Source: Chloroherpetonaceae bacterium (lineage in GTDB: Bacteria > Bacteroidota > Chlorobiia > Chlorobiales > Thermochlorobacteraceae). Taken from it: DNA of 64,000 nucleotides. The position numbers and the translations under genes were made by a program. Below the pieces are notes generated by a model. It was not told the origin of the DNA. It saw nothing but the letters and a program-made list of their open reading frames with translations, and did not search any database. Of this stretch, positions 6,838 to 36,531 are shown piece after piece. Each line of letters opens with the position of its first letter. The first letter of the stretch is position 1. The stretch covers positions 68,926-132,925 of the forward strand of contig JANRJQ010000014.1 of NCBI GenBank assembly GCA_033763895.1. The letters are read 5' to 3'.

Positions 6838-6894
6838 ATCAATCACCCCGTATTCTTCATTCCTGCTGCGATTCCGTTCACGCTTGTGCGTAAA
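6838..6894 (-). repeat. Displaced duplicate of the ppc 3' end (last about 17 codons, the stop and 5 nt)
   Basis: About 57 bp match 7458-7514 with 5 mismatches. It translates to LLRTSVNGIAAGMKNTG*, against LLRASVNGIAAGMKNTG* in the intact gene. Confidence 0.85.
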
Positions 6895-6932
6895 AGCACG
6901 GGTACAACCCTACCCAATTCATCACTCGAATT

Positions 6933-7145
6933 TCAAACAGGATTTCCTAACCGAATTGATAAAGGGAGTTTTGGGTTCATTTGACTTACTTTGAGAATAG
7001 AAAACCCGATTATTTCCCCATTCATATTTACTTTTTCCATTATTGCATCATTCTCTGTTTCTCTAAAGAAACCTTTTTCCTTTTCAAAAAGTACTTCTAA
7101 GAAATCTGCCTCTTTGTCAAACCAAATTGTTATTTCTTTTTCCAT
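6933..7145 (-). CDS. DUF2283-family small protein (putative antitoxin)
   Basis: 70 aa: WFDKEADFLEVLFEKEKGFFRETEND...NGEIIGFSILKVSQ, the typical DUF2283 pattern. It overlaps the upstream ORF by 16 nt. Confidence 0.75.
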   Translation of the reverse strand: MEKEITIWFDKEADFLEVLFEKEKGFFRETENDAIMEKVNMNGEIIGFSILKVSQMNPKLPLSIRLGNPV

Positions 7146-7453
7146 AACTCTACCCCAGTCTTTATTTTATTGGTAAAATAAGTTGTTACAATAAAGTTAT
7201 CTTTATCACTTTTTTTTACAACAACACATAAATATTTACTCCCAACCTCAGTTTGTTTATACCACTTGTAGTACAACTCTATCTCACTGTCTGATTTTGA
7301 TAATGTTATCGAATCGGGATTCACTAATGTTTCTTCAATTAATGCGAAACTTTCTTGCAATTCGGGATGGTTTGTTTCAATGTGATTCCATCGTTCTTTT
7401 GAAAGTCTTATCGTGTGATTTCTCCTATCTACGAAAAAATGATTCTCATCCAT
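7130..7453 (-). CDS. Small putative toxin (DUF4258-like/RelE-barnase-like candidate) paired with DUF2283
   Basis: ATG at 7453 (MDENHFFVDRRNHTIRLSKERWNHIETNHPEL...VVTTYFTNKIK). The tracked ORF start at 7462 is a TTG abutting the ppc stop. The family assignment is tentative. Confidence 0.5.
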   Translation of the reverse strand: MDENHFFVDRRNHTIRLSKERWNHIETNHPELQESFALIEETLVNPDSITLSKSDSEIELYYKWYKQTEVGSKYLCVVVKKSDKDNFIVTTYFTNKIKTGVELWKKK

Positions 7454-7462
7454 AAATATCAA

Positions 7463-10342
7463 TCACCCCGTATTCTTCATTCCCGCCGCGATTCCGTTCA
7501 CGCTTGCACGTAAGAGCGTCAGCAAAGCCTTGCGCTGCTCATCTTCCGGCTCAAGAGCGCGAAACTGCTTCAACGCCGAAATTTGAATAAAGCTAATCGG
7601 GTCGAGATACGGATTGCGCAAGGTTATAGACTTTTGAAGCGTGAGGTCGTTTTCCAAAAGCGACTTTTGCTTGGTGAGCTCTAAAATGATTTTTTTCGTT
7701 CGCTCATATTCCCCTGAAATGACTTGCATCATACGCTCGGCATTGGCTTTATCGTGTGCGAGCTCCGCATACGAAGCCGCCACAAGCATATCCGATTTGC
7801 ATAAAATCATTTGAACATTATCAATCAGTGATTTGAAGAACCGCCACTTCTCATACATTTCTTGCAATGTTTCAAGCGATGTCCCCGCTTTCATTGCCGC
7901 TTCAATTCCCGAGCCCACGCCAAACCAATTCGGTAATGCTGCGCGGTTTTGCATCCACGAAAAAATCCACGGTATGGCACGCAGATCTTCAATACGCTTC
8001 TTCGCTCCGCGCCGTGCAGGCCGTGAGCCGATTTCCATTTGCTCGATGATATCAATCGGTGTGGCTTCTAAGAAAAAGGGCAAAAAGTCTTTATCGTCAT
8101 ACACCAAGCCTCGGTAAGCATTTTTAGCTTCCTCCGAAATCTTCGCCATTACGGTCTCCCACGCTTTAGGGTGCTTTGGCGAATGATGCTCAAGGCTCGC
8201 CACCATTACTGCAGAGACAATCCGTTCAAGATTCCGATTGGCGATGTGAGGCAATAAGTATTTGGCCGAGATGATTTCACCTTGCTCGGTGATTTTAATT
8301 TTTCCGTCAATCGTTCCCTCCGGCTGAGCCAAAATAGCTTGATGCACCGGCGCCCCGCCGCCGCGGCCGACCGTTCCGCCACGGCCGTGAAACAGCCGCA
8401 ATTTAATGCCGTAGTGTTCGGTAAGTGCCTTTAATCGGAACTGTGCGTTGTAAAGCTCCCAATTTGACGCAGCGACTCCTCCATCCTTGCTCGAATCGGA
8501 GTAGCCGATCATAATTTCCTGCACATTGCCACGGGCTTCCAAATGCTTACGATATACGGGGTTTTCAAAGAGCGATCGCATTAAGGTTTCGGAGCGTTGA
8601 AGATCGTCGATGGTTTCAAACAGTGGAACTATGGTTAAATCGCTTTCATATCCATCGTGGTCGTCTTGGCGTATCAAGGCAGCTTCTTTGGCGAGCAGCA
8701 AAACTTCGAGCACATGACTGGCTTTTTCCGTCATGCTGATGATGTAGCTTTGAATGGCTCTTGGAGAAATGAATTCCAATATTTTTCGAGCCTGACGAAA
8801 GACAGAAATGATTTCATTTGTTTCTTCACTAAAGGTCAGTTTGAAGGGAATCATTGGTCTTCGGCTATTGATTTCATTTGATAGCCACTTAATTTTTTCT
8901 TCTTCCGAGAGCTCTGAATATGATTTTGAAATTATCCTTAACTGTGCGGTGATTTCACCAATTGCCGTGGTATGCTTGGTGCTATGTTGCCGAAGATCGA
9001 GCGTTACGAATGAGAATCCAAAGATTTCTACTTGCCTAAGCATCGGTTCAAGCGTGTGCTTGGCAAGCCGAATTGTTTTAGGCTGCTTCAAACTTTTATA
9101 GATCACGCGAAGATCATCGATGTATTCCTTTTCTGAATGATAAGCATGCTCATGCAAATGATCTTTATCAACCGATTCAAGCGTACGCTGTAATCTGTAA
9201 TACATGTATCGGAGCTTAATCCGGTAGGCTTCGCTTCGATTCTTCCCCGCCCACTCTTTTTCAATATGTTCCTTTCCAATTACTTCATCATCTTTTTGAA
9301 TCGAGGCTAAGAGTTCATCAGAGACCTTCACTCTCGCGGTTGAAACACTAAGGCTCATAATGGCGGCTTCGAGTGACGCCAAGTATTTTTTGAGTATCAC
9401 GGTTTTGAGATAGCGCAAGGTTTCGCGCGTGACATCGTGCGTGACGAACGGATGCCCATCGCGGTCGCCACCCGTCCAAGAGTGAATCCGCAGAAATGGC
9501 GGAATGTGAAATTCAGCTTCGGGGTAATGCGCTTTAAGAGATTGCTCCAATTCGTGATAAAGCGCCGGGATAATCGGATAGAACACACGCTCGAGGTAGT
9601 ATAACTGACTTTGAACCTCGTCTTTCACCGTAAGTTTTGTAGATCGCGCTTCTTCAGTTTGCCATAACGAAGTAATTTGATAGTAGAGTTCTTCCATCAT
9701 TTCCATTCGTTCGCGCTCGCTGTGGTTTGGGTTATCGAGCCGCTCTAAAATGGTTGCAATATGACGCCGCTTCCGAAGAATGGTGTGGCGCAATGCCTCG
9801 GTGGGGTGAGCCGTAAGCGTGGGAAGAATTTCAAGATTTGAAAGGAGGGCTTTAATGTCATCTGCCTTTATCCCGCGCGATTTCAACCCGCGAATGGTTT
9901 CTTCAATTGCTCCCGGAAGAATATTCCCGCCTGCGGCTGCTTTGCGTTCGCGGCGAATAAAGTGATACATATCGGCCACATTGAGCAAATGAAAATATGT
10001 TCCGAATGCACGGATTAAATCAAGTGATTCTCTTTGGCTTAAGCCTTTAATGATTTCAGTGAGTGCCTTTACCCCACCATCAAATTGGTCTTGATTGGAG
10101 GATGACGGTGATTTACTTCGAAGATCTTTACAGAGCAGACGAATTTTTTCTTCTAACTCTAAAAATGAACTTCCTTCTTGCTCAGTAAGCACATCGCCCA
10201 AAATATTCCCGAGCATTTTCACATCATCGTGCAAGCGATTCTCGCCGTTTTGAAATAGATCATGTTGATGCGAGTCGATTTTCGCGCTTTGTTCTAAATG
10301 GCTTTGTGGAACAAGGATTTCAGGTTGGGTTTCTGTTTTCAT
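7463..10342 (-). CDS. ppc: Phosphoenolpyruvate carboxylase
   Basis: Contains the canonical motifs TAHPTE, GYSDSSKDGG, FHGRGGTVGRGGGP-like, and the C-terminal ...NGIAAGMKNTG. Start set to the ATG at 10342 (MKTETQ...), preceded by AAGGAG. The 42 upstream codons of the tracked ORF look spurious. Confidence 0.95.
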   Translation of the reverse strand: MKTETQPEILVPQSHLEQSAKIDSHQHDLFQNGENRLHDDVKMLGNILGDVLTEQEGSSFLELEEKIRLLCKDLRSKSPSSSNQDQFDGGVKALTEIIKGLSQRESLDLIRAFGTYFHLLNVADMYHFIRRERKAAAGGNILPGAIEETIRGLKSRGIKADDIKALLSNLEILPTLTAHPTEALRHTILRKRRHIATILERLDNPNHSERERMEMMEELYYQITSLWQTEEARSTKLTVKDEVQSQLYYLERVFYPIIPALYHELEQSLKAHYPEAEFHIPPFLRIHSWTGGDRDGHPFVTHDVTRETLRYLKTVILKKYLASLEAAIMSLSVSTARVKVSDELLASIQKDDEVIGKEHIEKEWAGKNRSEAYRIKLRYMYYRLQRTLESVDKDHLHEHAYHSEKEYIDDLRVIYKSLKQPKTIRLAKHTLEPMLRQVEIFGFSFVTLDLRQHSTKHTTAIGEITAQLRIISKSYSELSEEEKIKWLSNEINSRRPMIPFKLTFSEETNEIISVFRQARKILEFISPRAIQSYIISMTEKASHVLEVLLLAKEAALIRQDDHDGYESDLTIVPLFETIDDLQRSETLMRSLFENPVYRKHLEARGNVQEIMIGYSDSSKDGGVAASNWELYNAQFRLKALTEHYGIKLRLFHGRGGTVGRGGGAPVHQAILAQPEGTIDGKIKITEQGEIISAKYLLPHIANRNLERIVSAVMVASLEHHSPKHPKAWETVMAKISEEAKNAYRGLVYDDKDFLPFFLEATPIDIIEQMEIGSRPARRGAKKRIEDLRAIPWIFSWMQNRAALPNWFGVGSGIEAAMKAGTSLETLQEMYEKWRFFKSLIDNVQMILCKSDMLVAASYAELAHDKANAERMMQVISGEYERTKKIILELTKQKSLLENDLTLQKSITLRNPYLDPISFIQISALKQFRALEPEDEQRKALLTLLRASVNGIAAGMKNTG

Positions 10343-10489
10343 AGCGGTACTCCTTAGGTTAATTATTGGTTTCAATGTACGGATTGACCCATTGAGATTC
10401 AAAGCCGTTTCTATCTCTCTCCGAATCGAGTTTTCATTGTATTTTAGGATTAACTCGGTGGTTATCACCCGAAAATCTTAGGATCATCA

Positions 10490-11497: not shown

Positions 11498-11737
11498 GAA
11501 TTTTAGAATTGTGAGTTGCGAGTTAAGAAATAAGAGTTAAGGATAAAAGTCGAAATTCACCAAATAGGACATACCGAGATTTATGATGCTCGTCAAGCTC
11601 GCGATGCAGCGCGTCCGCAATCCTTCATGAAAAGAATTTTACGTTTCTTTTAATCCTCTTTTCTTTCCTTCTTTATTTCTCCCTTCAAAATTCTATATTT
11701 CATCGCCTGAATTTATTGCACATTAAACAAACCATTT

Positions 11738-13132
11738 ATGTTCCAATTTCTTGATCGTGAGCATTCTATTGCCCCGCCCAATTTCAATCGTTGGCTGTTT
11801 CCGCCGGCGGCACTTGCTGTTCATCTTTGCATCGGCCAAGTGTATGGTCTCTCCGTTTTCAACATTCCAATGACAAAGCTTATCGGGATTACAGAACCGG
11901 CAAAAGGGCTTGATTGGACAATTCCCGACCTTGGGTGGATATTTAGTATTGCTCTCGCAATGCTCGGGCTCTCCGCCGCCTTTTTTGGAAAATGGGTTGA
12001 GCTTTCAGGTCCAAGGAAAACGATGTTTGCATCTGCTATATGTTGGTCGGTCGGATTTTTTATCGGTGCGCTCGGCATTTGGCTGCATCAGCTTTGGATT
12101 GTGTATTTCGGTTACGGTGTCGTTGGCGGCATTGGGCTTGGACTTGGGTATATCTCCCCTGTTTCGACGCTGATGAAATGGTTTCCGGACCGCCCCGGAA
12201 TGGCCACGGGAATTGCGATTATGGGTTTTGGTGGTGGCGCAATGATTGGCTCTCCACTTGCCGTTGAATTGATGAATACCTTTAAAACGCCATCGTCAAT
12301 GGGCGTTTGGGAAACTTTTTTAGTGATGGGTGCCATCTATCTTGTCTTTATGCTTTTCGGTGCGTTTGCAGCACGTGTGCCTGCACCGGATTGGAAACCG
12401 GTCGGATTTAATCCCTCTGTGCTTCCCAAAAAATTGGTAACCTCAGCCAATGTGAGTGCCGATGCTGCAATTTCAACACCTCAGTTTTGGCTGCTTTGGG
12501 GGGTGCTTTGTATGAATGTCACGGCGGGAATTGGCGTTTTAGGTCAGGCTTCGCCGATGATTCAGGAAATGTTTCTTCTCAAAAAATTTCGCGATGCGGG
12601 CATGAGTGAAGCCGATGTGGTGAAAATGGCAGCCGCAGCGGGCGGCGGATTCACGGCTTTGCTTTCGCTTTTTAATTTGGTTGGTCGATTTTTTTGGTCG
12701 TCTCTTTCCGATAAGTTTGGGCGAAAGGTGAACTATATAATTTACCTCGGCTTAGGAACGCTGCTTTATGCGCTGATTCCAACAACCGGTCAACTTGGCA
12801 GCGTGGTGCTTTTTGTCGTGCTCTTTTCGGTGATTATGAGCATGTACGGCGGCGGATTCGCGACAATTCCCGCCTACCTGCGTGATCTCTTCGGCACAAT
12901 GCAAGTGGGTGCAATTCACGGGCGATTGCTCACGGCGTGGTCTGTTGCGGCGGTGCTTGGGCCGGTGCTGGTGAATTACATTCGGGAGTATCAAATTAGC
13001 GTGGGTGTCGCGAAGGCCGATGCCTATAACATCACGATGTACATAATGGCGGGGTTATTGGTCGTTGGGTTTATCTGCAATTTTTTGGTAAGGGAAGTCG
13101 CTGAAAAATATCATCATAAGGAGGTTATTTAA
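11738..13132 (+). CDS. MFS transporter, oxalate/formate antiporter (OFA) family
   Basis: 464 aa and polytopic. The N-terminus (NRWLFPPAALAVHLCIGQVYGLSVF) is typical of the OFA family. Confidence 0.85.
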   Translation: MFQFLDREHSIAPPNFNRWLFPPAALAVHLCIGQVYGLSVFNIPMTKLIGITEPAKGLDWTIPDLGWIFSIALAMLGLSAAFFGKWVELSGPRKTMFASAICWSVGFFIGALGIWLHQLWIVYFGYGVVGGIGLGLGYISPVSTLMKWFPDRPGMATGIAIMGFGGGAMIGSPLAVELMNTFKTPSSMGVWETFLVMGAIYLVFMLFGAFAARVPAPDWKPVGFNPSVLPKKLVTSANVSADAAISTPQFWLLWGVLCMNVTAGIGVLGQASPMIQEMFLLKKFRDAGMSEADVVKMAAAAGGGFTALLSLFNLVGRFFWSSLSDKFGRKVNYIIYLGLGTLLYALIPTTGQLGSVVLFVVLFSVIMSMYGGGFATIPAYLRDLFGTMQVGAIHGRLLTAWSVAAVLGPVLVNYIREYQISVGVAKADAYNITMYIMAGLLVVGFICNFLVREVAEKYHHKEVI

Positions 13133-13273
13133 ATGGAAAAAAATCTTCAATCACAACCGGAAGCGTCATCGTCACAAACCGTGAAACTTGTCCTTTACTG
13201 GCTCATTGTGGGTGTGCCCTCGCTGTGGGCGGTATGGCAAGTGGTGGTGAAATCGGCGGTGCTTTTTAAGTAA
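13133..13273 (+). CDS. MFS transporter small subunit (46-aa single-TM peptide)
   Basis: Not in the ORF track because it is under 60 aa. The ATG follows the MFS stop codon (13130-13132) directly. Sequence: MEKNLQSQPEASSSQTVKLVLYWLIVGVPSLWAVWQVVVKSAVLFK*. Small peptides of this kind directly downstream of OFA transporters are annotated as MFS small subunits. Confidence 0.65.
   Translation: MEKNLQSQPEASSSQTVKLVLYWLIVGVPSLWAVWQVVVKSAVLFK
13199..13273 (+). repeat. Copy 1 of the 75-bp small-subunit 3'-end repeat (part of the intact gene)
   Basis: tggctcattgtgggtgtgccctcgctgtgggcggtatggcaagtggtggtgaaatcggcggtgctttttaagtaa. Confidence 0.95.
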
Positions 13274-13321
13274 TAGCAGGATTAACTCGCATTAACCTAT
13301 ATCTTGATTTTATTCTTGACC

Positions 13322-13353
13322 AAAAAAAGGCGCATCTTAAATGCGCCTTTTCC
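13322..13353. terminator. Bidirectional rho-independent terminator
   Basis: aaaggcgcat-cttaa-atgcgccttt hairpin flanked by an A-run and a T-run, between convergent genes. Confidence 0.6.
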
Positions 13354-13371
13354 TTCTTTAAAGATCAAATT

Positions 13372-14814
13372 TTACTTGATAAGCATCATCTTTTTTGTTT
13401 CAGTGAACGACCCCGAGACCAATTTATAGAAGTAAATGCCCGACGCAAGATTGTTTCCATTAAAGGGAATCGTGTAAACACCTGCTTCTTTAACCCCATT
13501 TTCTAAAGTTGCAACTTCTCTTCCCAACAAATCATAAATCTTCAACTCAACCCGCGACGCAGACGGAATGTTGTATCGAATTGTGGTGGTTGGATTAAAT
13601 GGGTTCGGTGTGTTTTGCAACAACTCGAATTTTCTTGGCAAATTTTGAACTGTATTCTCAATCACTCTATCTCCAATGCCTATTGCAAATTCTCCAAATG
13701 CTGTTAAATCATTAACGATAACATTCGGGAAAATTTTCAATATGGTTAAGCGTTGAAATGCGCTCTCGACATTTTTCCACGCTGAGGTTTTATTTGGACG
13801 GTAAAGAATTTGTACTTTTTCTGCTGACGGATTGCCTTCAACTTCTCCAACATTCACAATGAGATTATATCTTAACCCTACCGTTGAAATGCTTCCTGTT
13901 TGTTCAATCACCCAATATCTTGAGTTGGAGAGCGATTCAATACCCGGAGGCAATGCGCCGACTAACGTAGGATTTTGTTCAATTGAGCCTCTAATTTGAA
14001 AGGTTGACTCCCGGTTTTGTGTCACATTCAACATAAACTCTTTAGAACCCAAAAGATATGCCCCGGTTTCATTTTGCCTTATTGTTGTGTTAGCATTATT
14101 ATCCTTAAGTGACACCAATTGGGTAAAGGGATCAAACGAAAAACTAAGTTGTGGTTCGTTTCCTGTGTTTATTTTTCTAATAACGAATGGAATCCTATTT
14201 CCACTTAGGCTTCCCCTAATAACCGAATTAAATTGCGTTAAATCAAAAGGATCACTCAACTTTGTACCGCCAATATATAATTCTTGAATAGTATTGTTTT
14301 CCGGGAAGGAGATATTTTCAATTGGAACGCCATCTACGATTACCATATTTATAGATGGAGCATTTCTTAGATCGACTTCTCTCAAAGGCATCTCTGAAAC
14401 CCAAAAACTAGTTAAACTTGGTTTATTTCCAAGCAGTAAAGTTTTCGCGTTTTTTAATCTCCAAACTTGAAGGAGCTGAATTTTTTCATTTTGAGTGAGA
14501 TCAATTTCCTCAACCAACCCATCTGATAAAGCAAATTGCGTCAACTCTTTGAATGCTTCAATTCCTTTAAAGGATCTAATATTTCTTGCTTCGTTTATTA
14601 CGAGAGGATCAAAAAACGATATGCTGGTTATATCACTAACCTTTGGATTAGTAAAGGTAACGGTTTGTGCTGCATCATCTTTCGTGACGCCTGTGAAGCT
14701 TTTTACAAGTACTTCTCTGAAATTTTGATCCTGAATACTGACCGTTTGGGCATTCAGCGAAATCGCGGAAGCCAGCAACAAAACAAAAAATGTATTTTTC
14801 ATCATATTCATCAT
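13372..14814 (-). CDS. T9SS-sorted leucine-rich-repeat surface protein
   Basis: Signal peptide (MMNMMKNTFFVLLLASAISLNAQ), LRR segments, and a C-terminal T9SS domain (PNPFNPTTTIRYNI...GIYFYKLVSGSFTETKKMMLIK). The start lies among several Met codons at 14802-14871. Confidence 0.8.
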   Translation of the reverse strand: MMNMMKNTFFVLLLASAISLNAQTVSIQDQNFREVLVKSFTGVTKDDAAQTVTFTNPKVSDITSISFFDPLVINEARNIRSFKGIEAFKELTQFALSDGLVEEIDLTQNEKIQLLQVWRLKNAKTLLLGNKPSLTSFWVSEMPLREVDLRNAPSINMVIVDGVPIENISFPENNTIQELYIGGTKLSDPFDLTQFNSVIRGSLSGNRIPFVIRKINTGNEPQLSFSFDPFTQLVSLKDNNANTTIRQNETGAYLLGSKEFMLNVTQNRESTFQIRGSIEQNPTLVGALPPGIESLSNSRYWVIEQTGSISTVGLRYNLIVNVGEVEGNPSAEKVQILYRPNKTSAWKNVESAFQRLTILKIFPNVIVNDLTAFGEFAIGIGDRVIENTVQNLPRKFELLQNTPNPFNPTTTIRYNIPSASRVELKIYDLLGREVATLENGVKEAGVYTIPFNGNNLASGIYFYKLVSGSFTETKKMMLIK

Positions 14815-15024
14815 TCGAGCAATTTGGGTTAAAAGAAAAAAGGCACAACAACTTTTATTAAACATAAACATTTTATTAAAAAGTTTTCATAAAAATTTTC
14901 TAACGCCGTTTTCTGTTATTTTTGTTTAATTAAAGACCTCTCTTGCAAGCATTACTGGAAAAATTGAAATGTGTTTAAGGTTTCACTAAAGGCCGCAAAT
15001 AAGTTTATAAGATAAGCAGAGAAT

Positions 15025-15099
15025 TGGCTCATTGTGGGCGTGCCCTCGCTGTGGGCGGTTTGGCAAGTGGTGGTGAAATCGGCCGTGCTTTTTAAGTAA
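15025..15099 (+). repeat. Copy 2 of the 75-bp small-subunit 3'-end repeat (truncated, no start codon)
   Basis: It encodes the identical 24 aa plus stop. The three differences from copy 1 are all silent. An in-frame TAA lies at 15013-15015 just upstream. Confidence 0.9.
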
Positions 15100-15141
15100 A
15101 AAAAATGGGGAATATCAATGCCCCACCTGATGAGAACGGGT

Positions 15142-15660
15142 TCACCGATTTAGAAAGTACTCTCGAAAATCTGCCATTTCTTTTCGCTCAAGCGCCACAT
15201 ATTTTTCAAAGATTTGTTTCCCAACTTGATGTTCCAACGCTGAGATCCCAACATCTATCAACCTTAAACCGGTGCTGGTGAGAAAAATATTATCAAAGGC
15301 TAATCCGCCGATATTAGACGGTCTTTTCAGATCGCGGTGTACAAATCCTGCTCGTTGTAACGCTGTCAATTCATCTTCGAACACTTCGACCCACAGTTCT
15401 CTTCTTTCAACTTCCTATGCTCTGAAATCAATCGGATAAAGCCGCCGCATAACAAGCATTTCTACTTGAATCGGTTCATTGAATTCTAATCGGAGAAATT
15501 TGACGACCAGATGATTAATCTCATTGGCAAACTTCATCTTTGCAGCTTCGCTGCCGATTTCAGAGCGCGAATCCCCAATAAATAATTTGCCAACTTCCGT
15601 GTCCCTTAAACCAATGACTGTATTATTCGCACCTGCTGAAAGTTTGCGTGGGTATTTCAT
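15142..15660 (-). pseudogene. Minimal protein-kinase-like gene interrupted by one in-frame TAG
   Basis: The two tracked ORFs (15415-15846 and 15142-15384) are in the same frame, separated only by a TAG at 15415-15417. The downstream half has the catalytic-loop-like FVHRDLKRPSN and LIDVG (DFG-like). The upstream half has SAGANNTVIG...VGKLF (G-loop/Lys-like). The likely ATG is at 15660. Confidence 0.55.
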
Positions 15661-15765
15661 TTTTTTCGCAAATGAAAAGTGAAATGCTTCGTGTTTATTA
15701 AAATCTCTGATTCCTAACTGAAATAAAATACCTAAACATGAATGTGAAACCTCAGACAAATAAAG

Positions 15766-15879
15766 ATGATGATGAGCCTTCACAAGGTGCAATTTGTGAT
15801 TTATTGGCTTATTGTGGGCGTGCCCTCGCTGTGGGCAGTATGGCAAGTGGTGGTGAAATCGGCGGTGCTTTTTAAGTGA
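15766..15879 (+). CDS. Possible second, shorter MFS-small-subunit-like ORF (37 aa) containing repeat copy 3
   Basis: MMMSLHKVQFVIYWLIVGVPSLWAVWQVVVKSAVLFK*. The last 24 aa are identical to those of the gene at 13133-13273. Homology extends a further 7 codons upstream (VQFVIYW vs VKLVLYW). No adjacent transporter gene. Confidence 0.35.
   Translation: MMMSLHKVQFVIYWLIVGVPSLWAVWQVVVKSAVLFK
15805..15879 (+). repeat. Copy 3 of the 75-bp small-subunit 3'-end repeat
   Basis: It encodes the same 24 aa. Differences from copy 1 are silent (ctt, ggc, gca) and the stop is TGA instead of TAA. Confidence 0.9.
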
Positions 15880-15897
15880 TTAAATTGACTTTTTTTA

Positions 15898-16962
15898 TTA
15901 AGTTTCTTTTTTAATCTCATTGATAAATTCAGAAATAGGTCTAACATAATCCTTTAAACCCACATGCTGGCTTGCGTATTTTAATTTTCTACTATTGTCT
16001 GGCAAGAAAAATATTTGCCTTTGTTCTCCGAGAAGAGTCAGTTTATCATCAGACAAATCCTCATCGAAGGTCACTACATGATAAATATATTTCACTTTAA
16101 ATCTGCTGAATATTTCTTTTGAACTGCTTATGTTCTTCCATCTTTCACGAAGGGTTCTTTTGCAGGATATTCCTATAACCCATCCATCTCTACATTTGAC
16201 CCAATTGTCAACTTCTAAATCTGCTTGAAAATGACTTGGTGCCTCTGCTCTACTAATGCCGTAATAATCAAGAATAAAATCTGTAACATCTTCTAAACTT
16301 CCCCCCGCTCGTGATTTTCTTTTTTGGCCTGCTCTCCGTTCGAATTCTTGACAAAAGGCAGTCAGAATAATGTCTTGATCATAATTACCAAGATTTAACT
16401 TATCATTAAGGAAAACTCTTAAAGAACCAAATGCTTTTATTATTTCTGTCCTTTCAGCATTCAAACAGCCCTTTACTCCTAAATCATCCCATAAATTAAT
16501 AATTGTTGCAAGACCAATTGAACCATTTATATCTAAAAAAGCCTTAGCAATCGATTCTGTATATATTTTATCATTACTTGGAATATTTGAAATTGCCTGA
16601 TTAAGAGGCATTACAACTTGTTCACAGGTTAAAATAAATGCACTCATTTCATCGTAAGTCTGAATATCATCATTTAAATCTTCCAATAATTTTTCAATTC
16701 TCATTTTTTTTGAGGAAGATTTTTCAAATTTTCTTCTCAAAATTTCGTTTAATGTCCTTTTTTGATGAATAAAAACTTCCGATTTATTCTTAAATGATTC
16801 ACTTATAATTTTTAAACTAGATGTTATCTCTAATAATAATTTGTTGTTTTTACCAATAGATCCATATTTATCACCACTTATTAGCATTCTTGAAAACCAA
16901 TAAACTTTATGCCAGTGATTTTGTAATTCTTCAATTACTGCCATTAAATTCCTCCATTTCAC
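15898..16962 (-). CDS. Type II restriction endonuclease candidate (PD-(D/E)XK-like), family not identified
   Basis: Last gene of a tightly overlapping M-M-R operon. Motifs: KRKSRAGGSLEDV and ADLEVDNWVK...ISCKRTLRERWKN. Very AT-rich. Confidence 0.6.
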   Translation of the reverse strand: MKWRNLMAVIEELQNHWHKVYWFSRMLISGDKYGSIGKNNKLLLEITSSLKIISESFKNKSEVFIHQKRTLNEILRRKFEKSSSKKMRIEKLLEDLNDDIQTYDEMSAFILTCEQVVMPLNQAISNIPSNDKIYTESIAKAFLDINGSIGLATIINLWDDLGVKGCLNAERTEIIKAFGSLRVFLNDKLNLGNYDQDIILTAFCQEFERRAGQKRKSRAGGSLEDVTDFILDYYGISRAEAPSHFQADLEVDNWVKCRDGWVIGISCKRTLRERWKNISSSKEIFSRFKVKYIYHVVTFDEDLSDDKLTLLGEQRQIFFLPDNSRKLKYASQHVGLKDYVRPISEFINEIKKET

Positions 16963-17710
16963 TGAATGTAATAAATGATCTTTCCTTAAATTCTAAAATC
17001 CTTTTTTCCGCCATTTCTACATATAGAGGTGACTTATCAATACCGATATAATTTCTTCCATTTATAATTGCTGCTAAAGCGGTCGTACCCGACCCAATAA
17101 ATGGATCTAAAATAAGTTTTGCTCTTGTAGATGAAATGATTCTGTCGATTAGAGCGACAGGGAAAGGTGCGGGATGAGCATTTTTCATTTCTTGTTTGAA
17201 TTCCCAAACGTCTCCAAAAGAATTAGCCTTTGGTAAAAGTTTAAATTTCGGTTTTGCAATCATATAGATTACTTCATATGTCGGAAGAAAATAACCGGGA
17301 TTAAAATTTATACCTCCCTTCCTTTTCCATATAATTATTTGACGAACTGGAAAATCCTTAACTATGTCTTCACGATCTTGCAGTAAACCGTCCTGCACAC
17401 GCCATTTGTGGTTATAAAAAATCGCCCCTTCATCGTTAATTAATCTCATCATTTCGGTCAAACATTCTCTTTGCCACTTTACATATTCATCATGTGGCAT
17501 ACAATCATCATGATGACTATAACCATTTACTAATGATGCATTTTTCCATTTACCGCCACGCCCATCTTTCATGCCGTTTCCTGTAGAATTTTTTAGGTTA
17601 TAAGGTGGTGATGTAACGACTAAGTCAATACTATTTGTTGGCAATTGTTTCATTATTTCTAAACAATCACCTACATAAATCTTGTTAAGATCTATTGAAT
17701 TATTTTTCAT
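16931..17710 (-). CDS. DNA methyltransferase, beta-class N4-C/N6-A type (SPPY motif)
   Basis: 259 aa. Motif IV is VVTSPPYNL and motif I is DPFIGSGTTALAA. The order IV then I indicates the beta class. Confidence 0.9.
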   Translation of the reverse strand: MKNNSIDLNKIYVGDCLEIMKQLPTNSIDLVVTSPPYNLKNSTGNGMKDGRGGKWKNASLVNGYSHHDDCMPHDEYVKWQRECLTEMMRLINDEGAIFYNHKWRVQDGLLQDREDIVKDFPVRQIIIWKRKGGINFNPGYFLPTYEVIYMIAKPKFKLLPKANSFGDVWEFKQEMKNAHPAPFPVALIDRIISSTRAKLILDPFIGSGTTALAAIINGRNYIGIDKSPLYVEMAEKRILEFKERSFITFSEMEEFNGSN

Positions 17711-18677
17711 AAAAATTTCTAACCTTTTTCAATTTAAATTTCAAACTATTCCTCTCCCAAAACACCCCATCCGCGAAGCCTTGAATACCCGTTTCCTTTT
17801 CAGCCAATTCCAAACGCTTTTCTGCCCAAACGCCATATTCCTCATTCAATTCAATCCCGATGTAGTTTCTCCCCAGTTTTTTTGCAACCACCGACGTTGT
17901 TCCCGACCCCAAAAACGGGTCAAGCACCACATCGCCCTTTTTGGAAGAGGCTAAGATGAGTTTCGCGATGAGCTTTTCCGGCTTTTGCGTGGGATGGTCG
18001 GTATTTTCGGGCATCGACCAATACGGCACACTGATATCATCCCAAAAATTAGAGGGAAATGTGATTCTGAAATTCCCGTCCTCGGTTTCTTCCCAATCTT
18101 TTGGCTTTCCGTCTATTTTATAAGGCGCAATCACTTTGCGTTTCATTTTCACGGCTTCGACATCGAAGTGGTAACTGTTTTTATCCTTTACCCCAAACCA
18201 AATGTCTTCCATCGCATTTTTCCAATTGCTTTGTGCGCCGCGTCCCTTTTCGCGCTGCCAAGTAATTCGGTTCATCACCACCAAATGCGCTTCCATTACT
18301 TCTTGCAGGGCGGCGGTGCACTTCCAATCGCCGCAGAGATACAGCGAGCCGGTATCTTTGAGCAGCCGAACGATTTGTGGAAACCACGTTCTTAAGTAGG
18401 CGCGATAATTTTCGGTATCCGTTTCTTTGAATTGAAACCCGTTGAAATTTTTGCTGAGGTTGTAGGGCGGGTCAAGAATGATAAGGTCAGCAATTTTTTC
18501 AGGGAGTTTTTCAACGATGGGGAGCATATCGCCGCATAGCGTATTGTTGAGAACAGCATCGAGAGATAGTTCACTTTCATCTTTCACCCGAACCAACTTC
18601 GAGGCGAAGCGTGGGTATTCCACGGCATCAACCGTAAGCGTTCGATTCCGCTCCGCTCTGATATTTTCGGTTTCCAT
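17700..18677 (-). CDS. DNA methyltransferase, beta-class N6-A/N4-C type (DPPY motif)
   Basis: 325 aa. Motif IV is ILDPPYNL and motif I is DPFLGSGTTSVVA. It overlaps the next methylase gene by 11 nt. Confidence 0.9.
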   Translation of the reverse strand: METENIRAERNRTLTVDAVEYPRFASKLVRVKDESELSLDAVLNNTLCGDMLPIVEKLPEKIADLIILDPPYNLSKNFNGFQFKETDTENYRAYLRTWFPQIVRLLKDTGSLYLCGDWKCTAALQEVMEAHLVVMNRITWQREKGRGAQSNWKNAMEDIWFGVKDKNSYHFDVEAVKMKRKVIAPYKIDGKPKDWEETEDGNFRITFPSNFWDDISVPYWSMPENTDHPTQKPEKLIAKLILASSKKGDVVLDPFLGSGTTSVVAKKLGRNYIGIELNEEYGVWAEKRLELAEKETGIQGFADGVFWERNSLKFKLKKVRNFYEK

Positions 18678-18766
18678 TTACTTTAATTGTTGTTAACGCT
18701 TAAGGGCAGTGTTCTAAAGCAGAATTTATTTCTCAAAACGCAACTTTGCAACAGCAAATTCTTGCA

Positions 18767-18926
18767 TGATAGAAGTGCATTCAGGATTCCGAACGCGTGT
18801 TGCTTGACTAAATGACCAACCAAAAGGCATGTCATTTCGAACGGAGCTTTAGCAGAGTGAGAAATCTCCAGTGCGCGGGGAATCGGAGATTTCTCACAGC
18901 GAACTTGACGAGCATCTTCAATCCTC
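18767..18926. repeat. Nested-palindrome dispersed repeat element (REP/MITE-like), copy 1
   Basis: The outer inverted repeat atgtcatttcga (18819-18830) / tcgaaatgacat (18915-18926) encloses the hairpin gagaaatctcc...ggagatttctc. Confidence 0.6.
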
Positions 18927-18944
18927 GAAATGACATACACTTCT

Positions 18945-19063
18945 ATTTGGTGGCTTGCAGGATTCCGGACAAGCCGGAATGACCAACCAATAGGCATGTC
19001 ATTTCAAACGAAGCAACGCGGTTTCAAGAAAGTTGGGAAATCTCAAGCGTGGGGAAGGTTGGA
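18945..19063. repeat. Same repeat family, copy 2 (diverged)
   Basis: caggattccg..atgaccaaccaa.aggcatgtcatttc.aacg.agc...gaaatctc...ggagatttct aligns with 18771-18887. Confidence 0.6.
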
Positions 19064-19314
19064 GATTTCTGACATTTTTTTGTTTTATCTCCGTGTGATT
19101 CGAGTACTTGCCTTGTGAACTTTGTGTTTTTAAATCCGAAACACGGAGGTCACTGAGAAAAACCACAGAGAGCACAAAGGATTATTGCGTCTTCGCGGCT
19201 TTGCGAGAAACAGTAGCCTCGTAAGGTGGTTTCAGCACTTCGAAAAGATTAGGGCGACACGGGCAAAAACACATAATCTCCTTGCGATATGGTAAGAAAA
19301 GGGAGATAAAAAAA

Positions 19315-20936: not shown

Positions 20937-21012
20937 ATGATTATTATTTAAAAATAATTACAATTTAATTTATTGATATTTCTAAGACTTTGAATTAAAA
21001 ACGGCAATCGAC

Positions 21013-21264
21013 TTCTGCTTGAATTATTTATACTCGAGTCTTCAAATTCACAACCTCTGTATCACATTTTCATACTCTTGTTACAAAAATAGTGACTGCT
21101 GTGTTTCTTTTTAATACGCAAGTCATAAAATCGATGACCGCTGTATTACATTTTCATACTCGTGTTACAAAAATAGTGACTTCTGTATTACTTTTTCATA
21201 CGCAATTCATTAAATTGACGACCGATGTATCAACTTTTCATAAAGTAATACTGTTAAAAATGGA
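21013..21264. repeat. Tandem array of six contiguous 42-bp units (84-bp higher-order period)
   Basis: Units start at 21013, 21055, 21097, 21139, 21181 and 21223. The consensus is roughly nnctgtattacnttttcatacncnngtnanaaaatngtgac. Units 1 and 3 match at 39/42, and units 2 and 4 at about 34/42. Confidence 0.9.
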
Positions 21265-22056: not shown

Positions 22057-22077
22057 AATTCTAACTGAGAAGATGAA

Positions 22078-28000: not shown

Positions 28001-28008
28001 TTATTCAT
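22078..28008 (-). CDS. Giant T9SS-sorted adhesin: 11 FG-GAP/VCBS-type repeats, three LRR modules and a T9SS C-terminal domain
   Basis: Start set to the ATG at 28008 (MNKFLSLLFLFLSFASIATAQ). There are 49-aa repeats (DVNxDGxxDFLTANxxxNTVSVRLGDGTGxFxGST). Three LRR modules each open with VPD(A/E)NFR. The C-terminus reads NPFNPSTTIRYQI...GIYFYAIRSGKNTATKKMMLVK. Confidence 0.9.
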   Translation of the reverse strand: MNKFLSLLFLFLSFASIATAQTPSFSAPTYVGVGSQPNAVFVADVNHDGRPDFLTANFAGNTVSVRLGDGAGGFSGSTNISVGSGPRDVYVEDVNHDGNLDLLTANTSGSNVSVRLGDGTGDFSGSTNIGVGSAPRSIYLADVNHDGNLDFLTANASSNTVSVRLGDGTGDFTGSTNIIVGTAPFSIYVADVNHDGDLDFLTANQSSDNVSVRLGDGTGNFTGSTNISVGLIPRSVFVKDINNDGNLDFLTANNGSNTVSVRLGDGTGGFSGTTEISVGSSINKFFVDDVNLDGQPDIITANFGNNTVSVRQGDGTGNFTGSTNIGVVSGPYGIFVADVNSDGKPDILTANLNSDNVGVLLNTTSVALNPFGTASSVSLGELPNSVTIGDVNLDGKPDFLTANDASNTVSVRLGDGTGGFSGSTDIGVGSNPFSIAIGDVDLDGKPDFLTANPTGNNVSVRLGDGTGGFSGSTEISVGTGPRSVVISDVNLDGKPDFLASNVSDNTVSVRLGDGAGGFSGSTEISVGTAPQNVAIGDVNLDGKPDFLTANFISTVSVVLNNVVAVGPNVPDANFRNALITLGVTFDVSNNITNPAFAAGITELYLGSLGISDLTGIEAFTGLVTLILEVNSLTTLNVSGLTNLQTLNCQSNPSLATLNITGCTSLEFINGSSCDIATIDGLSSITSLTAINLFGNNLTSLDVSGQVALSTLECAGNPLLATITLPSPANSLTILNVSETAITSLAPNAPVLNSLISGDCPNLATIDVSQASAITLLLAFRNPLLTTIDVSNLTNLDQLSVGQNALTALDVSNNLELTQLFCSSNNISTLNLSLNTKLTRIGCNNQGSSLTLTSLTLPTPNDSLRELSCGGNSNITSLDVSGYPNLEILGCYGTGITSLDLSANTALVTLDGAQCPSLTTLTLPNTSTLTTIQCWDCPITALDVSGLTGLTFLDCRITQINFLDVANSTSLTTLDISGNPTPFYLIVPSLPYNPGTFTDTSPASIKYLGSDLEVPDANFRTALIAEGVTFNMSNRVTNLPFVAGINELDVSDSNILDLTGIKLFTGLITLYCDYNYLTTLDLSGNTSLGVLGCDVNLLTSLDLSMLPSLQLLYCSGNALTSLDLSNNPLLQTLSCQVNSITSLDLSANTALIEVYAHDNDLTTLTLPSTSTLGTLFCAGNSLNTLDVSSNSNLSNLRCSANLLTSLDVSSNANLTYLDCSLNDLTTLTLNNPNLTFLACGDNDLTSIDVSTLTALNDLRCPNNLLPSLDVSSNTALTYLDFGTNPIISIDVSMLSALTLLYGNNTDLTTLDLTGNPNLVTLRCSESNIASVNLTGLSSLSDLRIQYNALTTLNLTDNTTLQLVDCSFNSLTSLTLPSTSTLTNLICNDNPLTTLDLSPATGLIELACFNNQLTELDITPNTVLESLDIQGNPTPFFLTVSALPFPSGSVTTFFDTAPASYKIGPREVPDENFRNKLAADYGITFDGANFITNPSAAAAITDLSLGFSGIVNSTGLEAFVRLESINIGDNSLTTLVTSGNPFLRVLDCHENQITSLDLSQNPLLEEIYCYDNQLTELDLSDLPLLNRLNCEFNLLNVLNTGANPLLDNLRAEDNPLAIVLTADPAPTTLQVDFGTITDFLRSEIINPTILDGQTGGFIIGKTGAIIRVAINSNGGDIPLTTFAGVSPTINGSLPLGVPGISADKYWSLTTPSYTMNFDLVLDLTPITGVTNISTLQLLRRDDETAFWESVNDYGFVIFDFKGNYMIAKNMSLLGEFAIGTLGDNPLPVELTSFTAKATETKISLQWATASERDNQGYVLKRALTESGPYETIADFRTHPALRGAGNASVGKSYQYEDERSLKPGTMYHYKLYDVSYSGVATEHKPISVRTPYQFSLDQNYPNPFNPSTTIRYQIAEAGAVVLKVYDILGREVQTLVNERKEAGQYEARFNASQLSSGIYFYAIRSGKNTATKKMMLVK
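26325..27879 (-). repeat. Intragenic 147-bp tandem repeats (FG-GAP units) within the adhesin gene
   Basis: Eleven units counted in the protein (aa 66-583 of the tracked ORF). Boundaries are approximate. Confidence 0.8.
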
Positions 28009-28177
28009 AAAATGAAATTTGTTGCACTTTTGTTGGTTTCTTGATATATCAATATAGAATAATTTCAACTCCATAAATGCCGTTTTTTTCGAAACTTGAC
28101 ACTTTTTTAGCGCAAGTTGTTTGCATTATCTCATTTTCACCAACCCTTTTTCAATGGGTTATTGATCATTTCCAGTC

Positions 28178-30661: not shown

Positions 30662-30697
30662 GGATATCGTAATTTGATTTCTAAAAAATCGAATCGT

Positions 30698-31402: not shown

Positions 31403-31535
31403 AGTCGATAAATAGTTTTGGATGATAGTGATGCTGACTGCCGAAGGTTTTTTAGGGAAACTGCCTTTACCTCGATCCGGATACAACGATGATAATGTAT
31501 GTTTGTAAAGGAATCTAAGGGAAAATTTTACAATC

Positions 31536-33179: not shown

Positions 33180-33181
33180 AG

Positions 33182-33574
33182 TTATTTGATTTGACTTGCA
33201 AAGGGATTGAGGAGTTTAAGCTTTGGAATCGCTTCAAAGTCCCTTTCATTTCTGGTTATCAGGGTTGATTCTGTGAATAAAGCAGAAGCGGCAATGATGC
33301 TATCTCCCAATTTCATTTTCTTTTTGCGGCGAAGTTGAATGGTAAGATCTTCGATTTGCTTATTAATAGGAATCGCAAAAAATTGGTTGAGCAAGTTATT
33401 TAGAAGTATCTCATCGTGCTTCGTTGCTAAAGGAAATGACAATATTTCAATACGTGTTACTCGTGAGTAAAAACATTCATTATTGTTAAGGAATGCTAAG
33501 GCGAAAAAAGGTAATACTTCAGGTTCTTTTGCAGTCGCATAAATAAAAATGTTAGTATCAAATAAATACTTCAT
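33182..33574 (-). CDS. vapC: PIN-domain toxin VapC
   Basis: MKYLFDTNIFIY...LGDSIIAASA...LITRNERDF, carrying the PIN acidic residues. Its stop lies 2 nt before the ligase start. Confidence 0.85.
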   Translation of the reverse strand: MKYLFDTNIFIYATAKEPEVLPFFALAFLNNNECFYSRVTRIEILSFPLATKHDEILLNNLLNQFFAIPINKQIEDLTIQLRRKKKMKLGDSIIAASALFTESTLITRNERDFEAIPKLKLLNPFASQIK

Positions 33575-33759
33575 TCTTCATTTCTTAATTCTTTCAAATA
33601 CTGGAGTATTTCTTCTTTTCTATCTTCAAACATTCCAAAAGTCTTTTCAACATGAGAATAATCAATCTTCTTTTTCTTTTCGATGTTCTTAGGCTTTTTA
33701 ACGACAGCGGATTCGTTCTTCACCTTTCTGACTTTTACCGGTGATTTGATTTGATTCAT
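33571..33759 (-). CDS. Putative VapB-type antitoxin
   Basis: 62-aa ORF overlapping vapC by 4 nt. No domain recognised. Confidence 0.5.
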   Translation of the reverse strand: MNQIKSPVKVRKVKNESAVVKKPKNIEKKKKIDYSHVEKTFGMFEDRKEEILQYLKELRNEE

Positions 33760-33908
33760 AATTCTTTAAAAATTATTGAAGCTTATTTGATACATATTCA
33801 CATGAAAACATTACAATTATTCCAAATGATTACCAAATTTAGAGTTTTTTTCAGAGCTAAGGCTGATTTCTATTCGATTCAAAAAGAATTTCTTTCACTG
33901 GAATTTTC

Positions 33909-34913
33909 CTACTCCCCCTCGCCTTCGAAGAGCGTTTCAAGCGGCTCAGCGCTAAGGTGGTGGATTTCGCGGAGATAGCGTGCGAGCACATCCGATTGTC
34001 CGTGGGTGATATACACTTGTTTCGCACCGGTGGCAAGAATGGTGCTCACGAGGTCGTTCCAATCGGCGTGGTCGGAGATTGCAAAGCCGCGGTCGTAGCC
34101 GCGTTGCTTCTTCTTTCCACGAACTGCCATCCACCCCGAGGCAAAGGCCGTTTGCGGGTCTTGAAATCGGTTCATCCACTCCGAGCGGTGTGTCGAAGGC
34201 GGCGCTAAGATAATCGATTGCCCGAAGCTTTGTTTCTTTCTTCCTCCACCCGCGGGTAAGGTTGCTGGAGAGAAGGGTGCGAGCGTGTAGCCACATTCGC
34301 GGTATAGTTCCGAAAGGGCGATGGCAGCACCGTGAAGATAAATCGGTGGTGTATCGAGCAAAGCAAATTCGGCGAGCAATCGCTGTGCTTTTCCGAAAGC
34401 ATAACAAAAAACAAGGCTCGGGCCGTTATACCCTTTTGCCCAATCCACAATTTCTTTGGCGAGTTCGGCGGTATTCTGCCATTGATAAATCGGGAGCCCG
34501 AACGTGGCTTCGGAGATGAAGGTATCGCATTGCACAACTTCGAAAGGCTCGCAACTGCGGTCGGGCGTGCGTTTATAGTCGCCCGAAACAACCCAAACGG
34601 ATTCGCGGCCATTCTCATCTTTCCCTTCGATGCGGATTTGTGCGGAGCCAAGCACATGCCCGGCGGGGTGAAACGACACCCAAACATCACCAAAGCGTTT
34701 TTTTTCACCATAAGGAACGGCGGTTCCGCTGATGTTGCCGAGCCGCTTTTGCATTGCACGGAGTCCGGTTGGCGTAGCGAAGTAATGCGTGTGACCGGGT
34801 CGTGCGTGGTCGGCATGAGCATGCGTAATGATGGCGGTTGGAACAGGTCTCCACGGGTCTATGTGGAAATTGCCCTTCTTGCAGTAAAGCCCTTCAGTGG
34901 TGACGGTGACCAT
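33909..34913 (-). CDS. Ligase-associated DNA damage response exonuclease (metallo-beta-lactamase/beta-CASP)
   Basis: 334 aa with ITHAHADHARPGH (HxHxDH) and a C-terminal ISDHADWNDL...YITHG. Confidence 0.85.
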   Translation of the reverse strand: MVTVTTEGLYCKKGNFHIDPWRPVPTAIITHAHADHARPGHTHYFATPTGLRAMQKRLGNISGTAVPYGEKKRFGDVWVSFHPAGHVLGSAQIRIEGKDENGRESVWVVSGDYKRTPDRSCEPFEVVQCDTFISEATFGLPIYQWQNTAELAKEIVDWAKGYNGPSLVFCYAFGKAQRLLAEFALLDTPPIYLHGAAIALSELYRECGYTLAPFSPATLPAGGGRKKQSFGQSIILAPPSTHRSEWMNRFQDPQTAFASGWMAVRGKKKQRGYDRGFAISDHADWNDLVSTILATGAKQVYITHGQSDVLARYLREIHHLSAEPLETLFEGEGE

Positions 34914-34966
34914 TATTACACTTGATTATTTCCTTGAAAGCCATTTCCCAACCTACAAAATCAATT

Positions 34967-36286
34967 TTAATTTTTTTTATTCGTAAATGGCATAAAAATG
35001 CCCTTTGAAGTGGATTGGTCGAGAATTTGAATGGCTTCTTCTCGGTTTGGGAAAAGGATTTCTTGTCTTCGAATTCCGGCATAATACCGTGTGTAAAAAT
35101 GAAGGAAAAAAATAAACGAAAAAAGATATAGAATTACTGAAATTGCCGAAATCACCTGTATTTGATATTGGCGATATTTCAAAAGAAATTGAAATTTTTC
35201 TTTGATTGAAATCAATAAAAACCCTGCTGAAAGGAGTGTGAAAGATGAGTAAATATGGTATCTCGAAACCATTGCTTGAGATAGACCAAATTGGCTTCGA
35301 GTGAGTGCTGCCAATAGCGACGTCCCCAAAAAGAAAATGACCATAAAGAAGAATGGATTTCTCCAAACCCGTTTTAATTCATTTTCTTCTTGGTGAATCA
35401 ACCCCTCAATTGCCACTACCCATACCAAAACCCCAATCGTAACCGACGGGATAAGTGAGATAAGGGTAAGAGTAGGAAAATTATTTCCTCCAATTGAAAA
35501 TGCACTTCCTAAAAATGAAAAACTGAAAATCATCATCGATGTTATTTGATCGAAGGAAATTTGAATTTCTGATGAAGATGGTTTGGATAAAAAAATAGCG
35601 AGATGACCCAATGATAAAATTATGGAAATGAGTAGCGCCCAATATTTTTTATTCATCGCAAAGTAAAAGGCAACCAAAAAAGGTAAAAGCAGACCATTTC
35701 CTTGTGCAAAAGGCGCTAAAGATGAAAAAAGTAGTGCGATTACCCATCCATACTGAGATTTATGATTTAGCCAATATGCTGTAAGAACAAGGAGCGCAAG
35801 GACTGCTGACGATTGGATGCTTGCCATTGCCCAAAGCATACTTTCGGCTGAACCGGTGTGAAAGAAAAAGATTGTACAAATAATAATTATCCAAGGGGAT
35901 TTTGATATCAATTCATTTGTGATTTCAATTTCCTTAAGAAGTGAAACAAAACAGAGGTAGGCTGATAAATGAAGCAGCAATCCGTAAAAAATGATTCGCT
36001 GAAAATGAATTTCTCCAAATAAAGCGTGATCAAATAAAAAAAATAGTCTTGTAATTACAATTCGATGTTCATTATGCGGAGAAAATAATAAAGAAAATGT
36101 TTCACTTAATGTTGATTACCCTTTGATTCGGTTTAGAAAATCAATTAAAGTGAAGTCATCTAATATTGGAAAATTCGCTGATCCAAAAAGGGAAAGGAAA
36201 GTATAAACCCCAATGATTCCGATTGATGCCCAAAGCGAAAACTCGGAGTGGAGAAAAATCAATTGCTGCTTTTTATACAAATTCAT
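34967..36286 (-). pseudogene. Polytopic membrane protein (GT-C-like?) with one in-frame TAA
   Basis: An ATG at 36286 opens 56 codons (MNLYKKQQLIFLHSEFSLWASIGIIGVYTF...LNRIKG). A TAA follows at 36116-36118. The same frame then continues (STLSETFSLLFSPHNEHRIVITRLFFLFDHALFG...) into the tracked ORF 34967-35980. Confidence 0.6.
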
Positions 36287-36393
36287 AGGGTCGAATTCAA
36301 TTCAATGAATTCATTTGATTAATTTTTAATATAAACCCTTATTAAAAAATCTTGGGAATCTCTCAAGATTTATTTTTTCCATTATTTCACTTT

Positions 36394-36531
36394 CACCAAA
36401 GCGACGCTTTTCATCATATAGGACTGCAGTGTCCGAAAAATTGCCGAGCCGCTTTTGAATTGCCCGAATTCCGGTTGTGGTGGAAATCGCCTTTTTTTTC
36501 AGTATAGCCCTTCAGCGGTGAGGGTGACCAA
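36394..36531 (-). pseudogene. Decayed duplicate of the exonuclease gene 5' end
   Basis: It aligns with 34688-34913 apart from a deletion of about 88 bp that removes the HxHxDH region. It encodes (L)VTLTAEGLY* and TTGIRAIQKRLGNFSDTAVLYDEKRRFG, against MVTVTTEGLYC and PTGLRAMQKRLGNISGTAVPYGEKKRFG in the intact gene. Confidence 0.75.

Follow-up and report, generated by a model that had tools for sequence, protein, structure and literature searches.

An intact gene, an insert and a truncated copy of the end of that gene, all in direct orientation, make up the textbook product of a single homologous crossover between a chromosome and a molecule that bears part of the gene end. In E. coli, integration at the end of lacZ yielded mostly recombinants in which gene-end duplications of 109-950 bp flank the insert, an outcome that the authors ascribed to a circular molecule recombining by a single crossover (Amarir-Bouhram et al. 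2011, PMC3240628). Similar structures in natural genomes are known as insertion with long target duplication, in which an insert of <20 kb, with no mobility genes, lies between repeats of 30 to >400 bp, some of them 93-94% identical, a pattern found chiefly in species with natural competence (Furuta, Abe and Kobayashi 2010, PMC2853133, which in its reference 37 points back to Nobusato et al. 2000). A third body of work concerns CIMEs (cis-mobilizable elements) and tandem accretion (Pavlovic 2004 and Bellanger 2011, as reviewed in PMC5704250). Here we analysed a 64-kb stretch (64,000 nt, hereafter the window) of contig JANRJQ010000014.1 from the Chloroherpetonaceae bacterium assembly GCA_033763895.1, in which the ends of three genes, namely ppc, the gene for the small subunit of an MFS (major facilitator superfamily) transporter and an exonuclease gene, are each duplicated around small inserts. 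On balance, we interpret these loci as scars of homology-anchored integration, Campbell-type or one-ended, of DNA from a sister lineage.

The gene-end duplicates (two of ppc, three of the MFS small subunit and two of the exonuclease gene) were recovered by three methods, i.e. repeat finding, local alignment and sensitive self-BLAST, and lie where a first-pass annotation of the window had placed them. All three loci have the same topology, an intact gene end and a truncated copy in direct orientation around an insert. The copies had been described as 0.6-1.8 kb apart with one or two genes in between, and both statements hold, as the start-to-start spacings are 620 nt for ppc, 1826 and 780 nt for the MFS tails and 1706 nt for the exonuclease, and each of the four inserts (0.56-1.75 kb) is occupied by one or two genes. 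The inserts have a GC content of 32-40% compared with 46-55% for the adjoining genes, the mean of the window being 42.7%. Repeat lengths are 60, 75, 94 and ~140-226 nt, all >30 bp. One edge of every repeat is a stop codon (plus 1 to 9 nt) or a start codon, and the opposite edge falls at an arbitrary point of the coding sequence (60, 75, 94 and ~226 nt). In two of the four inserts, a gene is disabled by a single in-frame stop.

At the first locus, the intact ppc gene (phosphoenolpyruvate carboxylase, PF00311) occupies 7463..10468 on the minus strand, its true start probably lying near 10342, as the database protein has 959 aa. Its product is 100% identical to the database protein P0001, from a Chloroherpetonaceae MAG (metagenome-assembled genome), and the next-closest database ppc after this self match, that of the nearest sequenced relative, is 61% identical. 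The last 17 codons of the gene, its stop and a further 5 nt (7458..7517, minus) recur as a displaced remnant at 6838..6897 (minus) with 55/60 positions identical (blastn E=5e-17), and weak protein similarity possibly reaches 6923. The two tails encode LLRASVNGIAAGMKNTG (7458-7517) and LLRTSVNGIAAGMKNTG (6838-6897), each followed by a stop; four of the five differences are silent and the remaining one changes Ala to Thr. Between them, insert 1 (6898..7457, minus; 560 nt, 32% GC) is nearly filled by two overlapping minus-strand genes with Pfam matches, a PBECR2 nuclease-fold toxin-like gene (7130-7453) and its DUF2283 partner (6933-7145), which are separated by ~10 nt from one repeat and by ~35 nt from the other; the PBECR2 gene starts 10 nt past the ppc stop. 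Directly downstream of the remnant is a YefM/YoeB toxin-antitoxin pair (6218..6732, minus; Pfam), which would have been the earlier neighbour of ppc.

At the second locus, an MFS transporter gene (11738-13132, plus; Pfam) is followed by an intact gene for its 46-aa small subunit (13133-13273, plus), identified by NCBIfam NF047966 and by homologues. The end of this gene (copy 1, 13181-13273, plus) is repeated twice downstream on the same strand. Copy 2 (15025..15099) comprises 24 codons and the stop, has no start codon and shows three silent differences from copy 1. Copy 3 (15787..15879), for which the homology extends over 94 nt (15787-15880), lies inside a 37-aa ORF (open reading frame) with an ATG start (15766-15879) that retains positions 2-31 of the 31-residue NF047966 domain. 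The two displaced copies thus differ in their inner edge, 75 versus 94 nt. Over the 75 nt common to all (13199-13273, 15025-15099 and 15805-15879), the tails are 94-96% identical (E=1e-26 to 5e-30) and encode the same peptide, WLIVGVPSLWAVWQVVVKSAVLFK, up to the stop. All six variable sites are silent (five third-position changes and one change of TAA to TGA), for which the probability under neutral decay, with 19/75 sites synonymous, is ~3e-4. Insert 2A (13275..15024, minus; 36% GC) holds a gene for a secreted 499-aa protein with a C-terminal sorting domain of the type IX secretion system (T9SS; 13372-14871, minus; Pfam) together with its upstream region. Insert 2B (15100..15786, minus; 40% GC) holds a single gene of ~175 codons (15142-15663, minus; by translation) with one in-frame stop, probably a pseudogene, which matched no Pfam or NCBIfam family; its HRDLK..N motif suggests that the product may be kinase-like.

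The third locus concerns the 5' end of a gene. The intact ligase-associated DNA-damage-response exonuclease gene (33909..34913, minus; NCBIfam TIGR04122, E=3e-131) has its first 76 codons (34687-34913) duplicated in a displaced remnant at 36393..36531 (minus), which is 77-84% identical to the intact copy (34687-34771 versus 36393-36477, 77%; 34863-34912 versus 36480-36530, 84%). The remnant has its own TTG start, codons 1-17, an internal deletion of ~89 nt and codons ~47-76, and is broken by a stop codon and a frameshift. The description of the truncated copies as differing mostly by silent or conservative changes therefore stands for ppc and the MFS tails and fails for the exonuclease, whose greater decay would mean that the event was older or the donor more distant. 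Insert 3 (34914..36392, minus; 34% GC) contains a single membrane-protein gene of ~440 codons with one in-frame stop (34967-36286, minus; by translation), for which no match was found in Pfam or NCBIfam. Lying 62 nt from the start codon of the remnant is a gene for a Laminin_G_3/T9SS-sorted protein (36594..37586, minus; Pfam), probably the original upstream neighbour of the exonuclease.

Two further observations concern this locus and the T9SS genes. Within the conserved Lhr-ligase-exonuclease damage-response cluster, a PIN-domain (VapC-like) gene and a gene for a 62-aa partner (33182-33759, minus; 31-34% GC) separate the exonuclease from the ATP-dependent ligase, with VapC ending 2 nt short of the start of the ligase ORF, and this insertion has no accompanying gene-end duplication. 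In addition, the 3' ends of three T9SS-sorted genes (13370-13440, 22076-22146 and 36592-36662) share 61-75% DNA identity and encode a C-terminal sorting domain finishing KKMMLIK or KKMVLIK; one of these similar genes is insert cargo and another adjoins the exonuclease remnant. Pfam places such sorting domains in three proteins of the window, which agrees with an origin in the Chlorobi-related phylum group.

To establish that these structures are real, we compared the window with Logan contigs from runs DRR729080 and DRR729082, which are independent, unscaffolded, single-run assemblies and match it at 100% identity. From DRR729082, contig L044 covers 5772-8692 of the window and L001 covers 12788-13930, and from DRR729080, L043 covers 13242-15867 and L046 covers 33524-39709. 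All of the junctions are spanned except for the outer edge of MFS copy 3, inside which L043 stops (15867). As independent assemblies reproduce them, the three structures are not chimaeras of the MAG. We also performed a background control by applying the same repeat search to 38 other loci (~714 kb), mostly from unrelated genomes and including six Chloroherpetonaceae loci; part of this set consists of distant ppc genes (≤42% identity, mostly Bacillaceae) from a scan of genome contigs with ppc, which are unusable for synteny. The search returned eight candidate pairs, all of which were intergenic palindromic repeats, internal domain repeats or adjacent paralogues. The count is thus zero gene-end duplications in ~714 kb versus three in 64 kb, a strong local excess that upholds the earlier contention that three instances so close together are not a coincidence. 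A protein-level scan of every ORF terminus in the window detected no older remnants beyond the three loci.

We then considered what might have moved these inserts. Family searches with Pfam and NCBIfam of 60 ORFs across the window, inserts included, gave no match to any integrase or transposase family, and neither terminal inverted repeats nor attC-like structures were found at the insert boundaries. The three repeat sets have no motif in common, all alignment scores between them lying inside the shuffled range. Within the window, the first-pass annotation was therefore correct in reporting neither a recombinase or transposase nor inverted terminal repeats or a shared motif, and the check for a common junction motif that it had proposed came back negative. 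Only two tRNA genes are present in the window (44090 and 51531), both without partial copies. Viral and proviral contigs gave no match to a degenerate MFS-tail pattern, a ppc-tail pattern or PBECR2.

Looking at relatives, we found four non-self homologues of the MFS small subunit, all single-copy in their contigs, and the degenerate MFS-tail pattern occurred in metagenomes at two loci with one copy each. The single tails come from family-level relatives (L033-L042), none of them conspecific. The ppc neighbourhoods of Chloroherpetonaceae relatives were considered as empty sites and rejected, as synteny is not conserved. Exact-protein look-ups with the genes that border the inserts, made in search of cassette-free variants, returned only contigs identical to the window. 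A homologous PBECR2-DUF2283 pair was found in another organism, in one context, where it has no flanking tail duplication; the idea that this pair itself carries a gene-end signature was rejected on the basis of that single available context. In one relative (L039, 10260-19718), a TPR/GerE regulator comes after the MFS small subunit, and beyond it are a type I CRISPR-Cas cluster and a PIN_2 gene; the region downstream of the MFS/small-subunit pair may vary across the family.

The silent character of the differences is central to our interpretation. With 6/6 changes silent in the MFS tails and 4/5 in the ppc tails, we take the copies to have diverged while each was the functional end of the gene in a lineage of its own, and to have been imported afterwards. 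Selection acting on the remnants in place is implausible, because MFS copy 2 lacks a start codon and no gene precedes the ppc remnant, and if the remnants are not under selection where they sit, the differences must predate the insertion events. The silent-site divergence of roughly 0.15-0.3 indicates fairly close donor lineages. We infer the recombination route, the identity of the donor and the order of events as follows. The donor would be a sister lineage whose DNA brought in that lineage's form of the gene end together with its AT-rich accessory gene or genes next to it, and the incoming DNA would recombine with the resident gene on one side only, by host homologous recombination and independently of any dedicated recombinase. 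This could happen through a Campbell-type event, in which a circular molecule integrates by one crossover, or through one-ended invasion in which the far end is joined illegitimately; both would give the same product, i.e. an intact and possibly hybrid gene, then the insert, then the displaced and truncated end of the resident gene. Two such events at the MFS locus would have stacked two inserts. Only those events that rebuilt an intact essential gene would have survived, which would explain why the insert is always accompanied by a replacement end. Repeat edges at gene boundaries are expected if donor and recipient share the coding sequence only, and the two cargo genes disabled by a stop fit passive acquisition.

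The topology is the same as that of the Campbell-type (insertion-duplication) products of Amarir-Bouhram et al. (2011, PMC3240628), for which host recombination functions suffice, although theirs was an engineered plasmid in E. coli and ours are natural loci read from sequence. Intact and truncated copies are in direct orientation at 3/3 loci, and an independent origin of the incoming copy is indicated for MFS and ppc. Given the boundary edges, the silent divergence, the variable repeat lengths, the inserts so filled by one or two genes that recombinase remnants would find no room, and the E. coli precedent (PMC3240628), Campbell-type capture is the best fit among the three explanations that the first-pass annotation had put forward, and most likely we are dealing with a known kind of event and not with a new class of mobile element.

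Several points weigh against this interpretation. It presupposes host RecA and a host that can take up DNA. All four inserts hold whole genes with just 10-150 nt of extra sequence, and such compact whole-gene inserts are not an obvious outcome of random breakpoints and hint at discrete units. The relatives and look-ups covered yielded no donor lineage, no empty site and no occupancy polymorphism, and microhomology at the illegitimate junctions is ambiguous. Finally, the search for recombinases extended over 64 kb of the genome, and one may be encoded elsewhere.

The main alternative, which we consider rather unlikely, is that the inserts represent site-specific integrative elements, decayed or miniature, that resemble CIMEs, with an attP that mimics the gene end and an integrase that has been lost by deletion or acts in trans. 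The three MFS tails would then form a tandem accretion array (attL-attI-attR). Site-specific integration and accretion classically give rise to direct repeats of the target-gene end and to tandem stacking (PMC5704250), and the loci indeed resemble CIMEs in being integrase-less DNA bounded by target-gene-end repeats, with units stacked at one site. An attP that has to restore the gene would likewise be kept under purifying selection, from which the silent-only differences would follow, and the compact whole-gene inserts resemble discrete units. However, CIMEs descend from elements with known integrases and defined att sites, whereas here neither an integrase, nor a fragment or remnant of one, nor a related autonomous element was found in the window or its inserts. 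Three targets within 30 kb would need three specificities, and their repeats have no common motif. The extent of the repeat is not fixed even at one target (75 versus 94 nt for MFS copies 2 and 3), ~226 nt of 5' coding sequence is unusual for an att site, and neither tail occurs on any viral or proviral contig. The ppc insert, with its 560 nt nearly filled by two overlapping genes, would require a deletion that was near-exact on both sides, which makes the earlier suggestion of remnants of larger elements a poor fit, especially at this locus. A comparable architecture is that of the tycheposon islands of Prochlorococcus (bioRxiv 10.1101/2020.12.28.424599), where successive integrations at a single site are likewise parted by partial copies of the target; the targets of tycheposons are tRNAs and integrases are involved, whereas in the present case the targets are protein-coding ends, no integrase was found in the window and the tRNAs are unaffected, with no partial tRNA copies flanking the inserts.

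A more radical variant, which we think distinctly improbable, is that the gene-end copy serves as a portable address label and that the inserts represent mobile cassettes of a recombinase-free kind, which would be common in this lineage. A unit of gene end plus cargo would be looped out when the copies on either side of it recombine, travel to a sister lineage and enter the orthologous gene there with host homologous recombination alone. Portable units of this sort would explain the compact whole-gene nature of all four inserts.

A further possibility, to which we give little credence, is a local duplication of the target at insertion, through staggered breaks or repair synthesis, with the copies diverging afterwards in this genome. 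This is the literal model of insertion with long target duplication (PMC2853133), and the decayed exonuclease remnant is as expected of a non-functional local copy. A dead copy should, however, gain mostly non-silent changes, and the silent-only pattern (6/6 for MFS, ~3e-4; 4/5 for ppc) contradicts this at two of the three loci, selection on the remnants being implausible for the reasons given above. As in the published class, the present loci combine a small insert free of mobility genes (<20 kb) with long direct repeats (>30 bp), the repeated MFS tail being single-copy in the family-level relatives covered, and in both cases repeats sometimes lie over the 3' end of a gene and the insert is often AT-rich. 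The published class, by contrast, was defined for restriction-modification systems and by means of a conspecific empty site, whereas the cargo here is a toxin-antitoxin pair, a secreted protein and two disabled genes; R and M genes are absent from the inserts, and the restriction-modification-like module at 15898-18677 lies outside the repeats. Moreover, the silent-only divergence makes the 'duplicate' an imported one and not one derived from the target, unlike in the target-duplication model.

Less probable still is a dedicated trans-acting system that places small cassettes in gene ends, as integrons or Xer-dependent dif modules do. Several compact whole-gene inserts lie close together without mobility genes, and they share with integron cassettes a small size, few promoters and, in series, a cargo of the toxin-antitoxin type that is often found there. 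Against this, no recombination-site motif is common to the three loci, the window contains no intI, the insert boundaries show neither attC-type imperfect palindromes nor terminal inverted repeats, and the repeats are merely host coding sequence ending at stop or start codons. The same toxin-antitoxin pair (PBECR2-DUF2283) occurs elsewhere without flanking duplication and family relatives carry single tail copies, so the unrecognised cassette-mobilizing system that had been suggested finds no support. The assembly artefact that a MAG source and strain-like silent-site differences might bring to mind, with strain alleles of a variable locus joined in series, is scarcely credible, since L044, L043, L046 and L001, from two runs, cross the junctions at 100% and the exonuclease remnant is a decayed pseudogene that cannot be a strain allele.

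If homology-anchored import is the correct interpretation, these loci are a natural record of the gain of accessory genes beside essential genes without obvious mobile-element machinery, in which the old gene end left behind is a datable scar. They would also show that a pattern known mainly from restriction-modification systems occurs with other cargo, toxin-antitoxin genes among it, and in the Chloroherpetonaceae, a family of Chlorobi-related phototrophs. Silent-only divergence offers a simple criterion for separating imported from local duplicates, and such scars could be mined to gauge how much uncultured lineages gain genes by recombination.

Small accessory modules are dense throughout the window. 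The restriction-modification-like module directly after MFS copy 3 (15898..18677, minus; Pfam and GC content) consists of a weakly EcoRII-C-like 354-aa ORF and two N6_N4 DNA methylase genes. The latter are adjacent and differ in GC content at third codon positions (0.25 versus 0.52), which suggests a mosaic origin. The low-GC stretch that begins with it at 15898 reaches ~21 kb. Within this stretch, two direct copies of a short repeat, each of ~90 nt (18811-18898 and 18978-19074; 75% identical, ~170 nt apart) overlap the start and the interior of a 104-aa ORF, probably spurious, which has no family match, and at its far edge an intergenic array (21010-21261) of ~6 diverged 42-nt units (or 84-nt units with 85% matches) may have an iteron-like or regulatory role. 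At the left end of the window (968-3122) are a gene for a Uma2-family endonuclease and a DUF6036/AbiEii-like nucleotidyltransferase gene overlapping a 98-aa partner ORF, which are of the defence/addiction type. A 1998-aa T9SS-sorted protein is encoded at 22078-28074, with ~10 diverged tandem repeats of 147 nt (49 aa) in its N-terminal third. Finally, three paralogous CarboxypepD_reg + TonB_C genes (48117-51406), two in tandem and one inverted, adjoin a tRNA-Asn gene and account for the repeat families D9 and I1.

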